NCBI GenBank assembly: GCA_034926675.1
Contig: JAYFQW010000028.1
Span: forward strand, 4,693 to 68,692
Direction of reading: 5' to 3'
DNA length: 64,000 bases
Source of the DNA: Clostridia bacterium
Lineage (GTDB): Bacteria > Bacillota > DTU025
In this document: positions 2,561 through 46,336 of the stretch, in pieces
Layout of the letters: the number at the start of each line of letters is the position of its first letter
How positions within the stretch are numbered: the first letter of the stretch is position 1
The notes under the pieces: generated by a model
The model's database searches: none
What the model was told of the DNA's origin: nothing
The model's input: only the letters and a program-made list of their open reading frames with translations
Made by a program: the position numbers and the translations under genes

Positions 2561-2959
2561 ATGATGGCGACTCCATACAACAGGTACCTTGAGACTCAGG
2601 TTCAGACGGCTCCGCCCGAGAACCTCGTCCTGATGCTATACGATGGCGCCATCAGGTTTGCTAACCAGGCCAAACTGGATCTAGCTGAGGGCAAGAGGGA
2701 GTCGGCGCACAAGAACCTCACCAGGGGCCAGGATATCCTGAGCGAACTCATGGGTTCACTCAACATGGATGCCGGCGATATCGCCGTGAACCTGTTCAAG
2801 CTATATGAGTACATGCAGTACAGGCTGGTTCAGGCGAACGTACAGAGGTCGATAGAGCCAATCGATGAGGTCGTGAGAATGCTCGGAGAGCTTCGCGAGA
2901 CGTGGTTCGAGGCTATCCGTGATTACCGCGGCAAGATCGCGCGGGCGGGGGGGCAATGA
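2561..2959 (+). CDS. fliS: flagellar export chaperone FliS (start chosen at the internal ATG after a GAGGGTGA RBS; the listed ORF begins at 2486)
   Basis: MMATPYNRYLETQVQTAPPENLVLMLYDGA matches the FliS N-terminal consensus. About 130 aa, follows fliD. Confidence 0.8.
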   Translation: MMATPYNRYLETQVQTAPPENLVLMLYDGAIRFANQAKLDLAEGKRESAHKNLTRGQDILSELMGSLNMDAGDIAVNLFKLYEYMQYRLVQANVQRSIEPIDEVVRMLGELRETWFEAIRDYRGKIARAGGQ

Positions 2960-2960
2960 G

Positions 2961-3470
2961 TTGACTTGTTCGACGCCAGATGTGGAACTGATAGAACGGA
3001 TTCACTCGTTTCGCGAGGATGAGCTCGCACAATACACTGCAATGCTCAGGCTGTCGGGTGTGCAGCGAGAGTTGATCCAGGCTGGTGATACGGATGCTCT
3101 CGCTCGTGCTACTGAGGAGAAAGCTCGGGTCATTGCCCAGATAGATGCGATCAGCCGGAAGATAGCCGGGCTTCTGGGCCAGCTTGGGGCGGCGCGGGGG
3201 AGCGCGCACGACGTGCATCCCTGCTTGCACCCGGAGATGGGCGCGGCAGTTGCGTGTCAGCTGAACGTGAAGATTGCCAAGGTGATGGCGGAGATCCTCG
3301 TCGCTGAGCGGGAGAATCAGGCTATGCTGGAGAGGGCCATCAATGCTGTGCAGGAAGAGATCAAAGGGGTGGCCTCCGGCGGGAAGGCAGTCCGCGCCTA
3401 CTGGGGGCGAGGCGCCGGAACGGCTGGCTTTGGATCTGGGGGCGCCACAGTGATCGATGAGAACCTGTAG
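2961..3470 (+). CDS. putative flagellar chaperone (FliT/FlgN-like), coiled-coil, Gly-rich C-terminus; start uncertain
   Basis: Position after fliD-fliS as in B. subtilis fliT. Helical, small, no other recognisable motif. Confidence 0.35.
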   Translation: MTCSTPDVELIERIHSFREDELAQYTAMLRLSGVQRELIQAGDTDALARATEEKARVIAQIDAISRKIAGLLGQLGAARGSAHDVHPCLHPEMGAAVACQLNVKIAKVMAEILVAERENQAMLERAINAVQEEIKGVASGGKAVRAYWGRGAGTAGFGSGGATVIDENL

Positions 3471-3499
3471 TGGTCTCAGGGGGCAACGTAGCATGGTCG

Positions 3500-3750
3500 C
3501 CAGTACGGAATTCGTACAGGTTCGTCGGTCAACCAGTACGGAATTCGTACGACTCTGGGCCTAATTCGCCGCCAATCAGACTCCAGGGAGAGAACATCGG
3601 CCCAGATGATGTAAATTAGTCCCCCCAAATCTGCCTTTCAGCGCTCTTGTGCACGAATCCTCCGGTCTTCTGGGATCACACACCGGTTTTGCCTTCAGCG
3701 ACGTACGGAATCCGTACAGGTGTCCCTTGTTCCCCGTACGAAATCCGTAC
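3500..3750. promoter_or_regulatory. array of four 15-bp palindromic sites GTACGRAATYCGTAC (3503-3517, 3536-3550, 3703-3717, 3736-3750), in two pairs each spaced 33 bp
   Basis: Read directly. The site at 3703 is a perfect 7-1-7 palindrome GTACGGA-A-TCCGTAC. Lies in the lower-GC intergenic region upstream of the sigma-54 response-regulator gene. Confidence 0.5.
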
Positions 3751-3842
3751 TGGGTCTCTGGAAGTTGGATGTGCTGCAGGAATCCACATTTCATTGAAGA
3801 ATTCCAACTAATATAGACAAGACTCGGATAGGGGACTGGCTG

Positions 3843-5540
3843 ATGGCAGAAGAGACGAACCGCAGCGGTCCAGTTGCGGTGGGCCGCGTGCTGATTGTTG
3901 ACGATGAGGTTAACATGCAGGTGGTTCTATCTGGCGCATTCGAGGATGCTGGACATGCAGTCCAGACGGCCTCAAACGGGACGGAAGCTACGGAACGATT
4001 GAGGGAATCCGATTTCGACCTGATAATCTTGGATCTCCGCCTTCCGGACATGTCGGGGATTGATGTGTTCAGAATCGCACGCGGGCTGCGCCCCGGGATT
4101 GTGGTGATCATGGTCACCGCTTACTCTTCAGTCGAGACTGCCATTCAAGCTCTCAAAATGGGCGCATATGATTACGTGATCAAGCCGTTCAACGTTGAAA
4201 AACTCCTGATGATGGCTGCGAATGCCATAGCAGGCCGGCATCATGCGGGCAAGCCAGATCGGAGCTTGGCATCGTCTGCAGTGGCAACGGCCGGGCATGA
4301 GGAGTTTGAAGGCGTTATCGGGGCATCTCCGCAGATGCGGAAGGTCATGGAGATGGTTCGGGACCTAGCGCCCACAAATGCTACAGTGCTGATATATGGT
4401 GAGAGCGGAACAGGAAAGGAACTGCTCGCCGACTACATACACAAGATGAGCCTTCGCGCGGGCCGTCCACTTGTCAAGGTGAACTGCGCCGCGATTCCGG
4501 AGTCGCTTCTCGAATCTGAGATGTTCGGCCATGAGAAGGGCGCCTTCACGCACGCGGTGTCGCGTCGATTCGGGCGGTTCGAGGTTGCGAACTCCGGCAC
4601 GATATTCCTTGACGAGATAGGGGAGATGTCCCCTGCTATGCAGGCCAAGCTCCTCCGCGTCCTGCAGGAGAAGGAGTTCGAGCGAGTGGGCGGCACTGAG
4701 ACAGTGAAAGTGGATGTCCGCGTGATCGCAGCCACCAATCGCAACCTCCGACAGGCCATTGCTGAGGGCGCTTTTCGCGAAGACCTGTACTACAGGCTTT
4801 CCGTAGTTCCGCTGTTCATGCCACCCCTCAGACAGCGAATGCAAGACATACCCATGCTGGTATCTCGGTTCATCGACAAGTACAATCGCGAATTCGGAAG
4901 GACCGCAAGAGGGCTGTCGCCAGAGGCCGCCCAGGCTGTTGCGGCTTACGCCTGGCCTGGCAACATCCGAGAGTTGGAGAATGCAATAGAGCGGGCAGTG
5001 CTCCTCTCCCGTGGCGACCTGCTCACCCCGGAGTACCTTCACCTGGGGCAAGATCCCGGTGACGCCATGTGCGGCCTGCGCACGATTGCATCCTCGGCGA
5101 ATGGCGCAGGCGTTACGCCGGTTCAGGCTGGGCGGTCGATGGCCTCAGGCGTTCTCTTGCACTCTAGTTTGGCGTCAACCGCTGCCGGATCCGAATTCGT
5201 GGCAGCCAGCACCCGCTCCTCTGCAGTTGCGTCTGAATCCGGATTTGCGTCCGTGTCCTCATTTGCTCCTTCGCGGGCCTCTTGGCTCGCATACACACAC
5301 GCATCCGCAGCCCCGCTCGCCCCTGGCTCGAATGGCCCAAACGAGCTCGCCGCTATCAGCCCGGGAGTCGAGTCGGAGGCAGCGTCTGCTGCTGGAGACG
5401 CGTTTTCGCTAGATGAGATGGAGCGGCGCCACATCAGGGCGGTGCTTGAGCAGACTGGCGAGAACAGGACGCAGGCTGCGAAGATACTCGGAATCACCAG
5501 GCGGACTCTTCTGAACAAGATCAACAAATATGGGCTCTGA
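3843..5540 (+). CDS. sigma-54-dependent response regulator (NtrC family; FlgR/FleR/FlrC-like flagellar activator)
   Basis: Receiver domain (LIILDLRLPDMSG), AAA+ sigma-54 interaction domain (GESGTGKE; GAFTHA variant of GAFTGA; ESEMFGHEKG), C-terminal Fis-type HTH (RTQAAKILGITRRTLLNKINKYGL). A long Ser/Ala-rich linker precedes the HTH. Confidence 0.85.
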   Translation: MAEETNRSGPVAVGRVLIVDDEVNMQVVLSGAFEDAGHAVQTASNGTEATERLRESDFDLIILDLRLPDMSGIDVFRIARGLRPGIVVIMVTAYSSVETAIQALKMGAYDYVIKPFNVEKLLMMAANAIAGRHHAGKPDRSLASSAVATAGHEEFEGVIGASPQMRKVMEMVRDLAPTNATVLIYGESGTGKELLADYIHKMSLRAGRPLVKVNCAAIPESLLESEMFGHEKGAFTHAVSRRFGRFEVANSGTIFLDEIGEMSPAMQAKLLRVLQEKEFERVGGTETVKVDVRVIAATNRNLRQAIAEGAFREDLYYRLSVVPLFMPPLRQRMQDIPMLVSRFIDKYNREFGRTARGLSPEAAQAVAAYAWPGNIRELENAIERAVLLSRGDLLTPEYLHLGQDPGDAMCGLRTIASSANGAGVTPVQAGRSMASGVLLHSSLASTAAGSEFVAASTRSSAVASESGFASVSSFAPSRASWLAYTHASAAPLAPGSNGPNELAAISPGVESEAASAAGDAFSLDEMERRHIRAVLEQTGENRTQAAKILGITRRTLLNKINKYGL

Positions 5541-5601: not shown

Positions 5602-7485
5602 GTGGCAATGAGGATGGGGCCCAGAGTATCGTTGGTTCCGGGTGTTGTTGCCTTGGCCACGAGCTTGATCGGCGCGACAGTGCAACTATGGTTCGTGCGC
5701 AACGTTGGATTGTGGGCAATTGTCGCCTACATTGGCTTGGCAGGCATCGAGATTGCGGCTATTGCACACTACATCGCTGTCGACCGCAGATACATCGTGA
5801 AGCAACAAGCAGTGGCAGAGCAGGCTCAGAGGCTTGAGATCGTCGCCAAAGAGCTTGTCGAGCACGAGGCGCTTATGAGGGACGACCTGGTGCGGGCTCA
5901 GCGTGATCTGAACGAGAGGATCGTGCGTCTATCTGGATTGCTTGAAGCTACCCGGCAGCTTGTGGCTACGCGCAACCTTCAGGACGCGCTGCAGCGCATT
6001 GTGGACATGACCCAAGCTATCGCGGGATCAGACGGCGCCATGCTTGAGTTGCGTGATGGAGAGCAGACGATCAGGTTGTCGTCAGGGTCATTCACCGAGG
6101 CTTCTGCTTCATTCGAACTCACTTCGAAAATCAGGTCGGCGGGCGTCGAGGTGGGCCGGCTTTCGGTGCAATTCGCCAACGTTGGGCATGGAGCTGCAGA
6201 CACCACTCACGTCCTGTCGATCATATCGGCTTTCGCCGGAGTTGCAGTAGAGAATGCCCGCCTCTACCAGGATCTCCGCACCGCCAACAACTCGCTGGAC
6301 CTATCTCGGAAATACGCGGAGAAGCTCGTTGAAGAGGTGCCAGTGGGCATTGTAGCCCTTGACCACGATTACCGCATTACAACCTGGAACAAGGCGCTTA
6401 CTGGCATCTCGCAGATGCCGACCTCATCTGCCATGGGCAAGCATATCTCGGATCTCCTAGGCCCTCAAGCAGACGCGGTTGTACGCTCTCTTGCCAAGGA
6501 TTCGGAGAAGTCGCAAAGTGCGGAGATGCGAACATGCACGGTTTCCCTTCCATCTGCAGGCACGTGCGGCTATCAGGGTGATCGCGGCGACGATCCTGAC
6601 CTCGGTGAGCACATCCTTCGGCTTGTAGTGTCGTGCGTCCACTCTCTCGACGAAGACGGTGTGGGGATTGTGATCATGGCCGAGGACGTGACGGAGAAGG
6701 TTCGCCTTGGGGAGCAGCTCAGGTATGCAGAGAAAATGAAAGTGGTAGGAGAGTTCGCGGCAGGAATGGCCCACGAGATAAATAACCCAATCGGGATCAT
6801 ATCTGCCTGTGCTGAGGTCATGGGAAAGCGGCTTTCACGTATAGGCGCCGGCATGGAGCAGTTTGTGAAAACTGCGAAGATCATAGAGGACGAGGCAATC
6901 AGATGCTCATCCATTATCAAGAACCTGCTGGGGTTCGCGAGGCAGGCGGAGATGAACCCAGGCGAGGTGAGTATCCCCGAGCTTGCTCGAGAGACCGTTG
7001 ATTTCCTCAGGGACCGGGCGGATGCAGCGAATGTGAATCTGACACTGGATGTGGCTGGCGACATCCCCATGGTCATTGCCGACAGGAACCAGATTGAGCA
7101 GGTTTTCCTGAACCTTGCCATGAATGCTATGGAGGCCATGAAGGAGGGAGGAAACCTCCGTGTGGCCGTTGTTGCCGATTCTGGGTCGGTGCGTATCTCA
7201 TTCGCAGACACTGGACCTGGTGTGGACCAGCAGAGCATCAATAGGCTGTTTAGCCCGTTTTTCACCACCAAGCCCACTGGAACTGGGCTCGGACTGGCCC
7301 TATCCCACGGGATAGTCGAGAGGCACGGCGGCAGGATCGAAGTGGAGAACCTGCCTGATGCCGGTGCACTCTTCACTGTTGTTCTTTCACTCTCAACACA
7401 GGAATGGAACGGCGGGGGCGGGCTGGAAATCGAGAAACACTTGCATTCAGGTGAGCAAAATCTGCTCACCCCCATCAACCCCTGA
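5602..7485 (+). CDS. membrane sensor histidine kinase with coiled-coil/GAF-like and PAS regions (FlgS/FlrB-like partner of the upstream regulator)
   Basis: Two N-terminal TM helices, PAS-like segment, HisKA H-box (GEFAAGMAHEINNPIGII), HATPase_c N/G boxes (NLAMNAMEAM; DTGPGV; GTGLGLAL). AGGAGG RBS 8 nt before the GTG start. Confidence 0.8.
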   Translation: MAMRMGPRVSLVPGVVALATSLIGATVQLWFVRNVGLWAIVAYIGLAGIEIAAIAHYIAVDRRYIVKQQAVAEQAQRLEIVAKELVEHEALMRDDLVRAQRDLNERIVRLSGLLEATRQLVATRNLQDALQRIVDMTQAIAGSDGAMLELRDGEQTIRLSSGSFTEASASFELTSKIRSAGVEVGRLSVQFANVGHGAADTTHVLSIISAFAGVAVENARLYQDLRTANNSLDLSRKYAEKLVEEVPVGIVALDHDYRITTWNKALTGISQMPTSSAMGKHISDLLGPQADAVVRSLAKDSEKSQSAEMRTCTVSLPSAGTCGYQGDRGDDPDLGEHILRLVVSCVHSLDEDGVGIVIMAEDVTEKVRLGEQLRYAEKMKVVGEFAAGMAHEINNPIGIISACAEVMGKRLSRIGAGMEQFVKTAKIIEDEAIRCSSIIKNLLGFARQAEMNPGEVSIPELARETVDFLRDRADAANVNLTLDVAGDIPMVIADRNQIEQVFLNLAMNAMEAMKEGGNLRVAVVADSGSVRISFADTGPGVDQQSINRLFSPFFTTKPTGTGLGLALSHGIVERHGGRIEVENLPDAGALFTVVLSLSTQEWNGGGGLEIEKHLHSGEQNLLTPINP

Positions 7486-7553: not shown

Positions 7554-7586
7554 CCCCGACGAATCTCGCCGGGGTTTTGCTTTTTT
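7554..7586 (+). terminator. rho-independent terminator after the kinase gene
   Basis: Stem CCCCGaCGA-atc-TCGcCGGGG followed by TTTTGCTTTTTT. Confidence 0.5.
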
Positions 7587-7593
7587 CACGCAA

Positions 7594-7609
7594 TGGCGCC
7601 GTTATTGCA
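7594..7609 (+). promoter_or_regulatory. sigma-54 (-24/-12) promoter TGGCGC-N5-TTGCA upstream of flgB
   Basis: TGGCGCcgttaTTGCA has GG and GC separated by 10 nt. Sits about 48 nt before the flgB ATG, directly downstream of the sigma-54 regulator / kinase pair. Confidence 0.6.
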
Positions 7610-19284: not shown

Positions 19285-19509
19285 GTGGTGATAAGTGTAA
19301 CCAAACTGAACGGTTCGCCGATATTCATTAATGCGGAACTGATAGAGTCGATTGCCGCCACTCCTGATACGGTGATCACGCTTACTACGGGAACAAAGCT
19401 GATCGTATCGGAGCCGGTTGATCGGCTAATCGACGACATCATCCACTACCACCGCCTTATCAACCGGCGCGCGGTAATCGTCCGGAACTGGGCGGATAGA
19501 TCGAGGTAG
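19285..19509 (+). CDS. flbD: flagellar protein FlbD
   Basis: VISVTKLNGSPIFINAELIESI is the classic FlbD sequence. 74 aa, immediately upstream of motA. Confidence 0.8.
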   Translation: MVISVTKLNGSPIFINAELIESIAATPDTVITLTTGTKLIVSEPVDRLIDDIIHYHRLINRRAVIVRNWADRSR

Positions 19510-31674: not shown

Positions 31675-32448
31675 ATGGAGGACATCTCAGTGCTATGGGC
31701 TCAGTATCGTGAGTCGGGAAGCCAGGCAGTGCGGGAAACGCTCATCCTGAACTACATGGGCCTGGTGAAGTTCATAGTGAGCCGCATGCCCCAGGCGTCA
31801 ATCCCAGGGGTCGACTACGATGACCTCATGGGATATGGTGTTCTTGGGCTCATGGACGCGGTTGAACGCTATGATCTGAAACGGGGAGTGAAGTTCGAGA
31901 CATACGCAATGACCCGCATAAGAGGGGCCATTATCGACCATCTGAGGAACATGGACTGGGTGCCACGGTCAGTGAGGCAGCGCGCCAGGGAGATTGAGAA
32001 GGCCATGTGGAAGCTGGAAACGCAGCTTGATAGGCCTGCCACCGATGATGACATAGCTGCCGAGCTGAGAGTCGATGTGGCCACCCTGGAGAAATGGATG
32101 TGGGAGATAAGCAAGGCGTCGTACTTGTCGCTCGACGAACTCATTGCGGTGGATGAGGAGAGCAATGCAGCGACGTTACTGGACTTCGTGAGCGACATCG
32201 GAAGCCCAGATCCGGAGATGGTGCTGGAAATCGAAGAGCTGAAGAACGCTCTGATCGACGCCATCGATTCCCTTCCCGAGCGCGAGCGGATGGTGATTGC
32301 GATGTACTACTATGAGGAGATGACCGTCAAGGAGATAGCACAGGTCATGAGGGTCTCGGAATCGAGAGTGTCCCAGCTTCATACGAAGGCCATGATGCGC
32401 CTTCGGGCTAAGGTCGATCAGGGCAGGCAGGTCAGTGTGGAAAGATGA
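31675..32448 (+). CDS. fliA: flagellar sigma factor FliA (sigma-28 / SigD family)
   Basis: Sigma-70 regions 2 and 4 (RGAIIDHLR; MTVKEIAQVMRVSESRVSQLHTKAM), about 257 aa, at the end of the fla locus. Confidence 0.85.
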   Translation: MEDISVLWAQYRESGSQAVRETLILNYMGLVKFIVSRMPQASIPGVDYDDLMGYGVLGLMDAVERYDLKRGVKFETYAMTRIRGAIIDHLRNMDWVPRSVRQRAREIEKAMWKLETQLDRPATDDDIAAELRVDVATLEKWMWEISKASYLSLDELIAVDEESNAATLLDFVSDIGSPDPEMVLEIEELKNALIDAIDSLPERERMVIAMYYYEEMTVKEIAQVMRVSESRVSQLHTKAMMRLRAKVDQGRQVSVER

Positions 32449-44119: not shown

Positions 44120-45994
44120 ATGTGCTCGGTGGGGGTGTGTGGGATGTCCGCCAATAGGCGTACTGGGGACGCCCAAGAGCAAGCGCCTGAACTCGCTGGC
44201 CTTGCAGAAGATGCGCAGAAGGCATGCGATGCCATAGCGGCCGTAGTAGGTCTGGAAGTGGAAATTGTCGACAAGAACCTGCTTCGGATAGCTGGAACTG
44301 GCAAGTACCGTCTCCGCGTAGGGCATTCACTCGAACACGAAGGCGCAGTGTATCGGCAAGTCCTCAGAACTGGTCAGGGCACAATTGTAACCAGGCCCGG
44401 TCTGGAACCCATTTGTGGCCTGTGTTCCAAGTACGGTAGTTGCGACGAGAAGGCGGAGCTTTCTGCACCGATAGCCGTTGAAGGCGATATTGTAGGCGTC
44501 ATCGGGCTGGTCTGCTTCGACCAATCCCAGCGCGCCAGGCTGCTGGACAGGCTTGAGTGTCACAAGAACTTCATCGAACATATGGCCGGTCTGCTTGCAA
44601 GCAAGATTCGAGAGCACGCTCTGTTGGAACAGGAGCGGCGCGCTGCTCAAGAGGTCGCTGCGCTGCTCGATCGGATGGCCGACCCGGTGCTGGCTGTAGA
44701 TCAGAATGGAAGGCTGGTCCATTACAACGTCCCGGCAGGCCGGCTTCTGAATATCCCTGATGGCGATGGCTTCAGTGCTGCCCAGCGGGAGAAACGCATG
44801 GTCTGCAGCACTGAGGAACTGGGGTTCTTGGAAAGCACTCTCAGAACCAAGGAAGGGTTCGAGGAGAAGGAGATGTTTCTCAGTTTCGGGGGAGTCGAGA
44901 AACCCTATCTCGTATCCGCTACGCCGTTGGCATCGGGAGGGCTTATCTACGGTGCTATGGCGGTGATCCGTCCGCTGGGAGAACTCCACCGCTGGGCCTA
45001 CAACTTGACGAATGCCGTGAAGGTATTCACGCTCAACGACATCATCGGGGAGAGCCCTGCGATCCAGCTCATCAAGGAGAAGGCGCTCAAGGTGGCGGGA
45101 GGCAAGTCCAACATCCTGATAACAGGAGAAAGCGGCGCCGGGAAGGAGCTGCTCGCAAGGGGAATACACAATGCGAGCGGCCGTGCTGACCGGCCGTTTG
45201 TCGCGGTGAACTGCGCCGCGATTCCAGATACTCTCCTCGAGAGCGAGCTTTTCGGGTACGAAGAAGGAGCATTCACAGGCGCGAGAAAAGGCGGCAAACC
45301 TGGAAAGTTCGAACTCGCCGACGGGGGGACGATCTTTCTCGATGAAATAGGCGAGATGCCCATCCATCTCCAGGCGAAGCTGCTCAGAGTGCTCGAAGGC
45401 TGGGAAGTGGAGCGTGTTGGAGGCACTCGGTCAAGGCCCATCGATGTGCGACTCATGGCCGCCAGCAATCAGGACCTCGAAGGGAAGATCGCTTGCAGAG
45501 AGTTTCGCGAGGACCTGTATTTCCGTTTGAACGTAATACCTTTGCAGGTCCCGCCGCTGCGCGACAGAGAAGGAGACACTCCGCTCTTGGCACGCTACTT
45601 CATCCGAAAGCATGCCGCCTTGCTCAACAAGAAGATCGAGGGGATGGAACCCAGCGTGGCTAGGTTGTTCGAGAGCTACTGGTGGCCCGGCAATGTCCGC
45701 GAGCTTGAGAACACAATCGAGCATGCCGCCAACATCGAGAGTACATCCATCATTCATGAACGGAGTTTGCCAGAGACGATTCGCACCAGGGCATCGAGCG
45801 TCTCGAGGAAGTTGCGCGGCCATGCGGGCATTGACGACATGGAGGCGCGCCTGATAGAAAAAACCCTGGGGCGATACGGGTACAGCTACCGTGGCAAGCA
45901 ACAGGCGGCGCGCGAACTGGGAATCGGCATTGCCACCCTTTATCGGAAAATGGCTCGCTATGGCATCCCGGGAGTCCATGCCGCAAAACGATAG
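44120..45994 (+). CDS. sigma-54-dependent transcriptional activator (GAF/PAS sensor - AAA+ - Fis HTH); start uncertain
   Basis: GESGAGKE Walker A, canonical GAFTGA (EEGAFTGA), C-terminal HTH (QQAARELGIGIATLYRKMARYG). N-terminal sensor with a Cys cluster (PICGLCSKYGSC). Confidence 0.85.
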   Translation: MCSVGVCGMSANRRTGDAQEQAPELAGLAEDAQKACDAIAAVVGLEVEIVDKNLLRIAGTGKYRLRVGHSLEHEGAVYRQVLRTGQGTIVTRPGLEPICGLCSKYGSCDEKAELSAPIAVEGDIVGVIGLVCFDQSQRARLLDRLECHKNFIEHMAGLLASKIREHALLEQERRAAQEVAALLDRMADPVLAVDQNGRLVHYNVPAGRLLNIPDGDGFSAAQREKRMVCSTEELGFLESTLRTKEGFEEKEMFLSFGGVEKPYLVSATPLASGGLIYGAMAVIRPLGELHRWAYNLTNAVKVFTLNDIIGESPAIQLIKEKALKVAGGKSNILITGESGAGKELLARGIHNASGRADRPFVAVNCAAIPDTLLESELFGYEEGAFTGARKGGKPGKFELADGGTIFLDEIGEMPIHLQAKLLRVLEGWEVERVGGTRSRPIDVRLMAASNQDLEGKIACREFREDLYFRLNVIPLQVPPLRDREGDTPLLARYFIRKHAALLNKKIEGMEPSVARLFESYWWPGNVRELENTIEHAANIESTSIIHERSLPETIRTRASSVSRKLRGHAGIDDMEARLIEKTLGRYGYSYRGKQQAARELGIGIATLYRKMARYGIPGVHAAKR

Positions 45995-46000
45995 CAGCGC

Positions 46001-46119
46001 CTATCAATGTGATGGGTTTCATTATCAGTGGTTCTTTCGCAACAATGCCGCCAGCATATCGCGCATTTGACGCACTTTGACTCTACCCTCGCAGGCAGAT
46101 ATTACTATCAACATGATAG
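46001..46119. promoter_or_regulatory. two palindromic candidate enhancer (UAS) sites CTATCA-N3-TGATRG (46001-46015 and 46105-46119)
   Basis: CTATCAacaTGATAG is a perfect 6-3-6 palindrome and CTATCAatgTGATGG has one mismatch. Centres are about 104 bp apart and about 105-210 bp upstream of the sigma-54 promoter. Confidence 0.4.
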
Positions 46120-46215
46120 GCGGCGTTCCTTGACGTCAGAAGCCTCGCTATTTCGACAGTGATAACTGCCCAGCTAAACGCGGGTGTTGTCGAACTTGTG
46201 GTCTAGATGTGGCAT

Positions 46216-46231
46216 GGCGTGGAAATTGCAT
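46216..46231 (+). promoter_or_regulatory. sigma-54 (-24/-12) promoter TGGCGT-N5-TTGCA
   Basis: tGGcgtggaaattGCa with GG/GC spacing of 10, about 105 nt upstream of the 46337 ATG and downstream of the sigma-54 activator gene. Confidence 0.55.
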
Positions 46232-46336
46232 GTCTTATCAGATCGAATGCACAGGCGCGATGTAACAACATGGATGGCAGGCGTATCGTGAGTGGCGCTT
46301 TGAGGAAGCCTGCCAAGCCTTATAGGAGGAAGTTGC

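Follow-up and report, generated by a model that had tools for sequence, protein, structure and literature searches.

Cooperative and looping operator arrays are known for dimeric repressors and activators, such as λ CI at OR/OL, GalR at OE/OI, DeoR, and AraC at O2/I1. An array of palindromes resembling them is found in a 64-kb stretch of the genome of a Clostridia bacterium of the DTU025 lineage (contig JAYFQW010000028.1, positions 4,693 to 68,692), which is hereafter called the window; the term always indicates the whole stretch and not the array. Four copies of a 15-bp palindrome, GTACGRAATYCGTAC, are located in the gap between a flgN-like gene and an operon coding for a response regulator (RR) of the NtrC family and a histidine kinase (HK), inside a flagellar gene cluster. 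Similarly to the systems mentioned above, the locus contains near-identical dyad sites of about 15 bp, spaced by an integral number of helical turns and accompanied by a second, in-phase set 100–200 bp away, in a promoter-proximal intergenic position; unlike them, it has unusually uniform sites, with no graded affinities, and it is not conserved in the nearest relatives available. The array is lineage-specific, an ordinary kind of element and a further instance of a familiar type. The reading favoured here, with a likelihood somewhat better than even, is that a symmetric dimeric DNA-binding protein occupies the four sites cooperatively, possibly with looping of the DNA, and controls the RR-HK operon; we infer both the binding and its target.

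The boxes recognized by LysR-type regulators have the form T-N11-A; in the case of BenM/CatM the sequence is ATAC-N7-GTAT, and a tetramer occupies a regulatory and an activation site (PMC11495319). The GTAC-N7-GTAC of the window has the T-N11-A form, a TAC-N7-GTA core and flanking dyad symmetry, a likeness that is one of resemblance only (PMC11495319), and the presence of two sites in each pair would suit a dimer of dimers. However, the window contains two pairs in which all sites are highly symmetric, whereas the activation sites of LysR-type regulators are usually degenerate; no LysR-family domain was found among the scanned large open reading frames (ORFs) of the window, and no divergent LysR gene adjoins the array.

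Sequence and Geometry of the Array

A preliminary description of this locus had reported four copies of the palindrome, at positions 3503, 3536, 3703 and 3736, and both the sequence and a pattern search confirmed them; at up to two mismatches, no fifth place was found in the 64 kb. The search returned eight strand-matches, i.e., the four sites on both strands, compared with 0.09 expected, and none of 100 shuffled sequences reached this number. A looser pattern, GTACGNAANNCGTAC, yielded at three mismatches only chance-level additions (33 matches vs. 22.7 expected in 64 kb); the form meant for scanning the full genome is GTACGRAWTYCGTAC. The array is real and well beyond chance. It is also rich in GTAC, with eight tetramers in its 250 bp, the next densest 250-bp bin of the window containing four. 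The lower GC content of this intergenic stretch, already pointed out in the preliminary description, was likewise found, with values of 0.52–0.535 in the array, 0.585 in the window and 0.63 directly upstream. A literature search on the 15-mers retrieved no bacterial work, the sole match being palindromic Widom-601 nucleosome DNA; a search based on the form of the motif led to the LysR boxes.

When both strands of the sites are aligned, 12 of the 15 positions are invariant, and in the symmetrized sites the dyad reaches weakly out to ACCnGTACGGAATCCGTACnGGT. The site at 3703, GTACGGAATCCGTAC, is a perfect 7-1-7 palindrome, as had been stated earlier. None of the four sites departs from G/C at positions 5/11 or from A/T at positions 7/9, while the base that follows the second GTAC is variable; this indicates that the symmetry is a true dyad and not an 11-bp direct repeat of GTAC.

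The start-to-start distances are 33, 167 and 33 bp, so that the array is made of two pairs with identical internal spacing, 200 bp apart, in agreement with the initial account. On a helix of 10.5 bp per turn, the site centres at 0, 33, 200 and 233 bp fall at 0°, 51°, 17° and 69°, i.e., on one face, and the pair-to-pair distance corresponds to 19.05 turns, thus in phase. The 15-mers are mutually identical at 13–15 of 15 positions, whereas the 18-bp spacers within the pairs match at only 7 of 18 in either orientation, which indicates that the site sequence and the 33-bp spacing are constrained and that the DNA between the sites is free. The segment between the pairs contains no recognizable promoter, plausible ORF or RNA family, all of which were looked for.

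These features suggest how the array might work. The four palindromes would be sites for a symmetric dimer of a protein encoded outside the window, most likely a helix-turn-helix (HTH) or winged-helix transcription factor. Each pair would accommodate two dimers, and cooperative binding is proposed on account of the 33 bp, or about three turns, that separate the centres and leave them on one face; a bridge between the two pairs could then close a loop, which is possible since the 200 bp between them keep the phase. The array, looped or not, would set the expression of the RR-HK operon directly downstream, and its location, intergenic and right before a regulatory operon, supports its being an operator.

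Genomic Context

The window begins within fliD, which is followed by fliS, the flgN-like gene, the gap containing the array, and the genes for RR and HK (Table 1). Downstream of the latter are flgB, flgC, fliE, fliF and the remaining flagellar cluster, whose end is formed by flhF, flhG, a gene for a PilZ protein and the gene for a sigma-28-type factor (31675-32448). The same order, csrA-flaG-fliD-fliS-flgN / RR-HK / flgB-flgC-fliE-fliF, is found in related contigs, and the closest proteins belong to metagenome-assembled genomes (MAGs) of uncultured Bacillota and to digester or fermentation metagenomes. Both genes flanking the array run in one direction, and the small intergenic ORFs resemble translated repeats rather than genes. 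In the RR, the linker between the AAA+ lid and the HTH (residues ~400–520) is a low-complexity stretch of about 110 residues, and the linkers of the orthologues vary in both length and sequence. A sigma-D/sigma-28-like promoter, TAAC-N15-GCCGATAT, is present at 19298-19324, just upstream of motA (19514).

Table 1. Features of the array and of the surrounding locus (positions refer to the window).
Feature	Position	Strand	Description
Site 1	3503..3517	none	GTACGGAATTCGTAC, flanks CCA...AGG
Site 2	3536..3550	none	GTACGGAATTCGTAC, flanks CCA...GAC; 33 bp from site 1
Segment between the pairs	3551..3702	none	152 bp; would form the loop if the pairs interact
Site 3	3703..3717	none	GTACGGAATCCGTAC, perfect 7-1-7 palindrome; 200 bp from site 1
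Site 4	3736..3750	none	GTACGAAATCCGTAC; 33 bp from site 3; with its flanks, best mirror partner of site 1 (19/21)
flgN-RR intergenic region holding the array	3471..3842	+	372 bp; 120 bp if 3501-3752 is removed
flgN-like gene	2919-3470		Directly upstream of the array gap
Response regulator (RR), NtrC family	3843..5540	+	REC, sigma-54 AAA+, lid, Ala/Ser-rich linker, HTH_8 (Fis-type HTH); presumed regulated gene, not presumed binder
PAS histidine kinase (HK)	5602..7485	+	Second gene of the RR-HK operon
21-bp palindrome	7450..7470	none	GGTGAGCAAAATCTGCTCACC; probable enhancer of the RR; motif unlike the array
Sigma-54 promoter of flgB	7594..7609	+	TGGCGCCGTTATTGCA; conserved in every orthologous locus with an HK-flgB gap

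Conservation in Orthologous Loci

A contig from another sample (L075, sample ERR1193535) retains all four sites in the same orientation, and it also carries the database representative of the RR (P0001), which is 100% identical; since this contig is 99.65% identical to the window over 10.5 kb, such conservation is uninformative. Several findings weigh against the operator reading. The array is absent from the other orthologous loci (L076-L081, L103-L110, L116 and L117), whose RRs are 55–71% identical, so that it is present only in L075. No gene for a candidate binding protein adjoins it, and no regulon can be defined, because a single instance of the array is visible. Scans of the intergenic region for sigma-A, sigma-D and sigma-54 promoters gave nothing above background, the best sigma-A score being 6.1, whereas the best score in a 420-bp stretch of the window has a median of 6.3; with no promoter located for the RR-HK operon, the controlled gene is designated solely by its position. 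Finally, the whole array is mirror-symmetric and possibly flanked by a 6-bp duplication, in the manner of a mobile insertion.

As for the claim, made in the preliminary description, that this is a cooperative operator array for a dimeric factor, the dyad form of the sites, the constraint on their sequence and spacing, their alignment on one face, the intergenic location and the uniqueness in 64 kb all speak in its favour, while conservation does not; the comparison of orthologous promoters, which had been put forward as a test, provided no support, only the 99.65%-identical contig keeping the sites. Nevertheless, the missing conservation does not refute the operator idea, because the relatives are too distant, as indicated by the 55–71% identity of their RRs.

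The gap before the RR gene ranges from 74 to 702 bp in the orthologous loci, and it is usually compact where flgN lies upstream (74, 127, 147 and ~170–185 bp). Palindromes unrelated to those of the array are found at a comparable place upstream of the RR in two relatives: GTGTGCATCATGCACAC in L076 (4918-4942), and ACAGTGCACTGT together with TGTGCACGATGCACA in L109 (652-688). Their presence suggests that lineage-specific factors may act on the RR-HK operon. In the 702-bp gap of L078 (4407-4662) there are four copies of a 23-nt unit, ACCnnnGGTTTTCCATACGGCT, spaced by 30, 171 and 32 bp and forming pairs 201 bp apart; one pair of units makes an inverted repeat with a 24-bp stem. The geometry is nearly that of the window array and the sequence is different: the units are not palindromes, they have in common with the window half-site only GTAyGGAA, in the opposite orientation to the dyad, and a global alignment of the two modules detected no homology. 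An Rfam search over the L078 intergenic region returned nothing relevant. The likeness may be a coincidence, or a related architecture may be conserved in this other lineage.

An element comprising a Shine-Dalgarno-like AGGA, followed after 13–15 nt by TGAAGAA, precedes the RR gene in all orthologues (L079, L106, L078, L103, L116, L117), often accompanied by tiny start-stop ORFs (ATG TAA, ATG TGA, ATG TAG); its possible counterpart in the window is at 3779-3806. The proposal that AGGA-N13-15-TGAAGAA is a leader motif was dropped, since a MAFFT alignment places part of the element of the orthologues on the ribosome-binding site and start codon of the window.

Occurrence of the Palindrome in Other Genomes

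Scans for pairs of the motif retrieved 74 loci in genomes, 21 in metagenomes and one in viral contigs; the source genome was not among the loci returned from the genome collection. The 74 genome loci are heterogeneous, consisting mostly of iterons or unrelated repeats, and a comparable regulatory context was found in only one of them (L054). No flagellar context was seen among the metagenome and viral matches, and no copy of the pair-plus-spacer unit was detected in the genome or metagenome scans. One Streptomyces sp. contig (L059, 1029-1065) contains GTACGGAATCCGTAC and GTACGAAATCCGTAC at a distance of 22 bp from each other. A gltB-like gene lies about 470 bp farther downstream, and GTAC recurs in this pair with an 11-bp periodicity resembling that of actinobacterial GlnR boxes.

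Most of the metagenome and viral matches, and several of those in genomes, have the form of tight arrays, spaced by about 11, 22, 33 or 44 bp and located in or beside genes resembling replication initiators, and many of them abut long AT-rich runs. Ten array-linked proteins were scanned: matches to Phage_rep_O or DnaB_2 (E ≤ 2e-4) were obtained for five and matches to HTH_36 (~1e-3) for three, the Pfam curated cut-off being reached by only two of the Phage_rep_O matches and by none of the HTH_36 ones. Given this spacing, the initiator-like neighbours and the AT-rich runs, the tight arrays look like iterons of λ-type origins, and arrays of the GTACGGAATCCGTAC type look like a widespread kind of origin iteron.

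The window array could then be a phage or plasmid replication origin, or the relic of one, whose iterons would be recognized by a λ O-like winged-helix initiator encoded elsewhere, for instance in a prophage. Besides the shared 15-mers, the multiple palindromic copies and the spacings in multiples of about 11 bp, this very improbable explanation may draw on a 30-nt stretch of 77% AT (3788-3817), 38 bp after site 4; however, this patch is short and occupies the stretch immediately ahead of the RR start codon. Furthermore, while λ-type iterons are tightly packed, in or beside initiator-like genes, and abut long AT-rich unwinding regions, the window array has neither the packing nor the initiator-like gene, and only the short AT patch was found next to it: it consists of two pairs 200 bp apart within a conserved flagellar cluster, and the window contains neither an initiator-like ORF nor phage genes around the array. 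In a phmmer comparison with ten ORFs that contain such arrays or lie next to them, no window ORF showed similarity, and the intergenic region had no BLAST match among phages and plasmids. The GTACGGAATCCGTAC-type arrays lying beside AT-rich runs are distributed over contigs with a GC content from 27% to 67% (L083, L085, L089, L098, L101, L115, L037, L049 and others).

The regulatory context mentioned above is that of a Thermoanaerobaculum MAG (L054, 7240-7470), where four sites are located between the gene for a sigma-54 activator devoid of the REC domain and a perfect divergent promoter, TGGCACGCGCCTTGCT (TGGCAC-N5-TTGCT), which drives small Cys-rich peptides. Two of the four sites are identical to sites 3 and 4 of the window (GTACGGAATCCGTAC and GTACGAAATCCGTAC), and the spacing is 20 bp. 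T. aquaticum has the same layout, with GGTCGAAATTCGACC in place of GTACGGAATCCGTAC, so that the motif co-varies symmetrically between Thermoanaerobaculum species. Three or four palindromes are found between activator and promoter in the Thermoanaerobaculum loci (L054; L112, 4700-4990; L113; L114), and in several of these assemblies the gene call splits the activator in two. The contexts in which the palindrome recurs show it to be a genuine protein-binding sequence for at least two protein families; they do not point to the binder at the window array.

Sigma-54 Control and the Encoded Regulator

The upstream activating sequences of sigma-54 promoters, bound by NtrC-family activators and including the Thermoanaerobaculum arrangement, are among the described systems closest to the array, and at glnAp2 the NtrC sites are centred near -140 and -108. 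The window array might likewise be a sigma-54 enhancer, bound by a bacterial enhancer-binding protein that would be either the encoded RR, in a positive autoregulation, or a master activator similar to FleQ/FlrA. Its dyad pairs, about three turns apart, resemble the sites at glnAp2, the downstream gene encodes an NtrC-family protein, and paired or multiple palindromes beside an activator gene are shared with these systems, including L054 with its identical 15-mers and the co-variation seen in T. aquaticum. In spite of this, the enhancer explanation is improbable. At up to two mismatches, the -24/-12 consensus has no match between positions 358 and 7594, so that no sigma-54 promoter lies within reach, i.e., some 70–200 bp from the array; no GG-N10-GC element was found downstream of the array sites, and the nearest look-alike, CTGGAAGTTGGATGTGCT, has an 11-bp spacing. 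Clear promoters were detected in the same scan in two places, one preceding flgB (7594) and one following a second activator gene (46215), and because these genuine ones fit the consensus closely, a sigma-54 promoter at the array would have been seen. The earlier statement that the motif is not itself a sigma-54 or sigma-28 promoter element holds in the light of the promoter scans. The spacing of 20 bp in L054 also differs from the 33 bp of the window, and the HTH of the Thermoanaerobaculum activator, LSHSTLKCKLEK, is unlike that of both window activators.

The second sigma-54 activator of the window is encoded within 44120-46336; it has 624 amino acids and an uncharacterized N-terminal domain of about 300 residues. 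The promoter that follows it, TGGCGTGGAAATTGCA, precedes genes for a pyridoxal phosphate enzyme, an M20 peptidase and a carbamoyltransferase. The RR-HK operon is closed by a terminator-like hairpin with a T-run, CCCCGACGAATCTCGCCGGGGTTTTGCTTTTTT, immediately followed by the flgB promoter (7554-7609 for the whole), and the orthologous loci are alike in this respect.

Every orthologous locus that covers the HK-flgB gap, window included, retains a different palindrome, GGTGAGCAAAAWCTGCTCACC, 112–160 bp upstream of the sigma-54 promoter of flgB; depending on the locus, it is placed before, across or after the stop codon of the kinase gene (L075 8546, L076 8414, L078 8397, L079 8502, L103 6569, L106 6508, L109 4226, L116 4016, L117 4003). 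We infer from its place and form that this palindrome, at 7450-7470 in the window, is probably the enhancer of the flagellar RR. The recognition helix of the latter, ITRRTLLNKI(N/K)KY(G/D)L, hardly varies among orthologues, whereas the orthologous loci yielded, within 3–5 kb, no GTACG-N5-CGTAC even when one mismatch was allowed in the fixed positions. Since there is no -24/-12 promoter near the array, the helix does not track the motif and GGTGAGCAAAAWCTGCTCACC occupies the enhancer position, the array is probably not bound by the encoded RR, and the autoregulation by the sigma-54 regulator that had been suggested in the preliminary description is disfavoured.

Mirror Symmetry and a Possible Mobile Origin

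The most serious rival of the operator reading is that a non-autonomous element of about 252 bp (~3501-3752), similar to a miniature inverted-repeat transposable element (MITE), landed in a compact flgN-RR gap; the palindromes would be sites for a transposase or recombinase, and any regulation would be incidental. The symmetry of the array, flanks included, bears on this point: against the reverse complement of site 4, site 1 is identical at 19 of 21 positions, and against that of site 3, site 2 is identical at 17 of 21, as compared with 17/21 and 14/21 in the direct orientation. At the ends of the array, 3500-3520 and 3733-3753 are the two arms of a 21-nt terminal inverted repeat with 90% complementarity, and the hexamers abutting CAGTAC...GTACTG, GGTCGC and GGTCTC, are identical at five of six positions and might be a target-site duplication; however, this duplication is imperfect and its boundaries were picked after inspection. 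Removal of the element would leave 120 bp, near the gaps of 127–185 bp in L106, L103, L116 and L117 and not far from the 74 bp of L079. MITEs with terminal and subterminal repeats have a similar size, of about 250 bp, mirror-symmetric ends, a possible short flanking duplication and a lineage-specific occurrence in a compact gap; they differ in that the window array was seen once, as a single copy in 64 kb with none in the public genome and metagenome contigs scanned, and no related autonomous element is known. Each repeat is in itself a near-perfect palindrome with one central base, which is unusual for transposon ends, and no transposase is encoded nearby. An origin of this kind is on the whole unlikely, and it is compatible with the operator reading, since binding sites brought in as a cassette could by now be regulating the operon.

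A bolder combination of these elements is a doubtful proposition as well, slightly more so than the insertion itself: between flgN and RR-HK there would lie a cassette confined to this lineage, about 250 bp long, either mobile or derived from a phage and bearing sites of the O-initiator-iteron type, and the RR would be placed under a winged-helix protein of a mobile element acting through a looped complex of four dimers. If this were true, a class-II flagellar regulator would be controlled by a winged-helix protein of mobile-element origin.

The inverted repeats, 21–26 nt long and flanking a segment of about 140–210 bp upstream of a flagellar regulator, together with the cluster of eight GTAC sites, may also recall a device for phase variation, either an invertible promoter segment or a switch based on GTAC methylation. 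This is extremely improbable. The central A is on the + strand in all four sites, so that, judged by the sole asymmetric base of the core, their arrangement is direct and not inverted; the sites have an odd length, 7-1-7, without a 2-bp crossover core, and no gene for a recombinase or methyltransferase is present nearby. In addition, the independent contig L075 has the same orientation, and GTAC is not markedly depleted (150 observed vs. 171 expected).

A Possible Role at the RNA Level

Palindromes located between co-directional genes could act in a read-through or leader transcript, as CsrA-binding GGA hairpins or as processing or attenuation signals. Each site can fold into a 5–7-bp hairpin of -5.3 to -7.7 kcal/mol, csrA belongs to the same cluster in related contigs, no terminator was found between flgN and RR, and the fold of the minus strand has a z of -4.3; the last value arises because the palindromes merely pair among themselves, and folds of the whole region are uninformative. 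Several observations make such a role highly unlikely. The variation among sites is not compensatory: on the + strand, positions 6/10 are G-T, G-T, G-C and A-C, and the - strand presents the mirrored difficulty. Site 4 has no GGA on the + strand, where it reads CGAAAU, nor do sites 1 and 2 have one when read on the - strand; the whole-region fold of the + strand is no better than that of shuffled sequences (z = -0.93). An Rfam search over 3000-4300 gave nothing relevant, and there is no U-tract.

Significance for Flagellar Regulation

The comparison of the locus with its orthologues separates two motifs, the array upstream of the RR gene and the conserved palindrome that probably serves the RR itself. 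No general principle hangs on the array; its four near-perfect sites are nonetheless an ideal bait for DNA pull-down. To our knowledge, the sigma-54 two-component stage of the flagellar cascade has been little studied in Bacillota, and for this uncultured high-GC group we are aware of no account of how flagella are controlled. If a protein binds the array, it would represent the top-level input to the sigma-54/FlrBC-like flagellar hierarchy of these uncultured high-GC Bacillota of anaerobic digesters.

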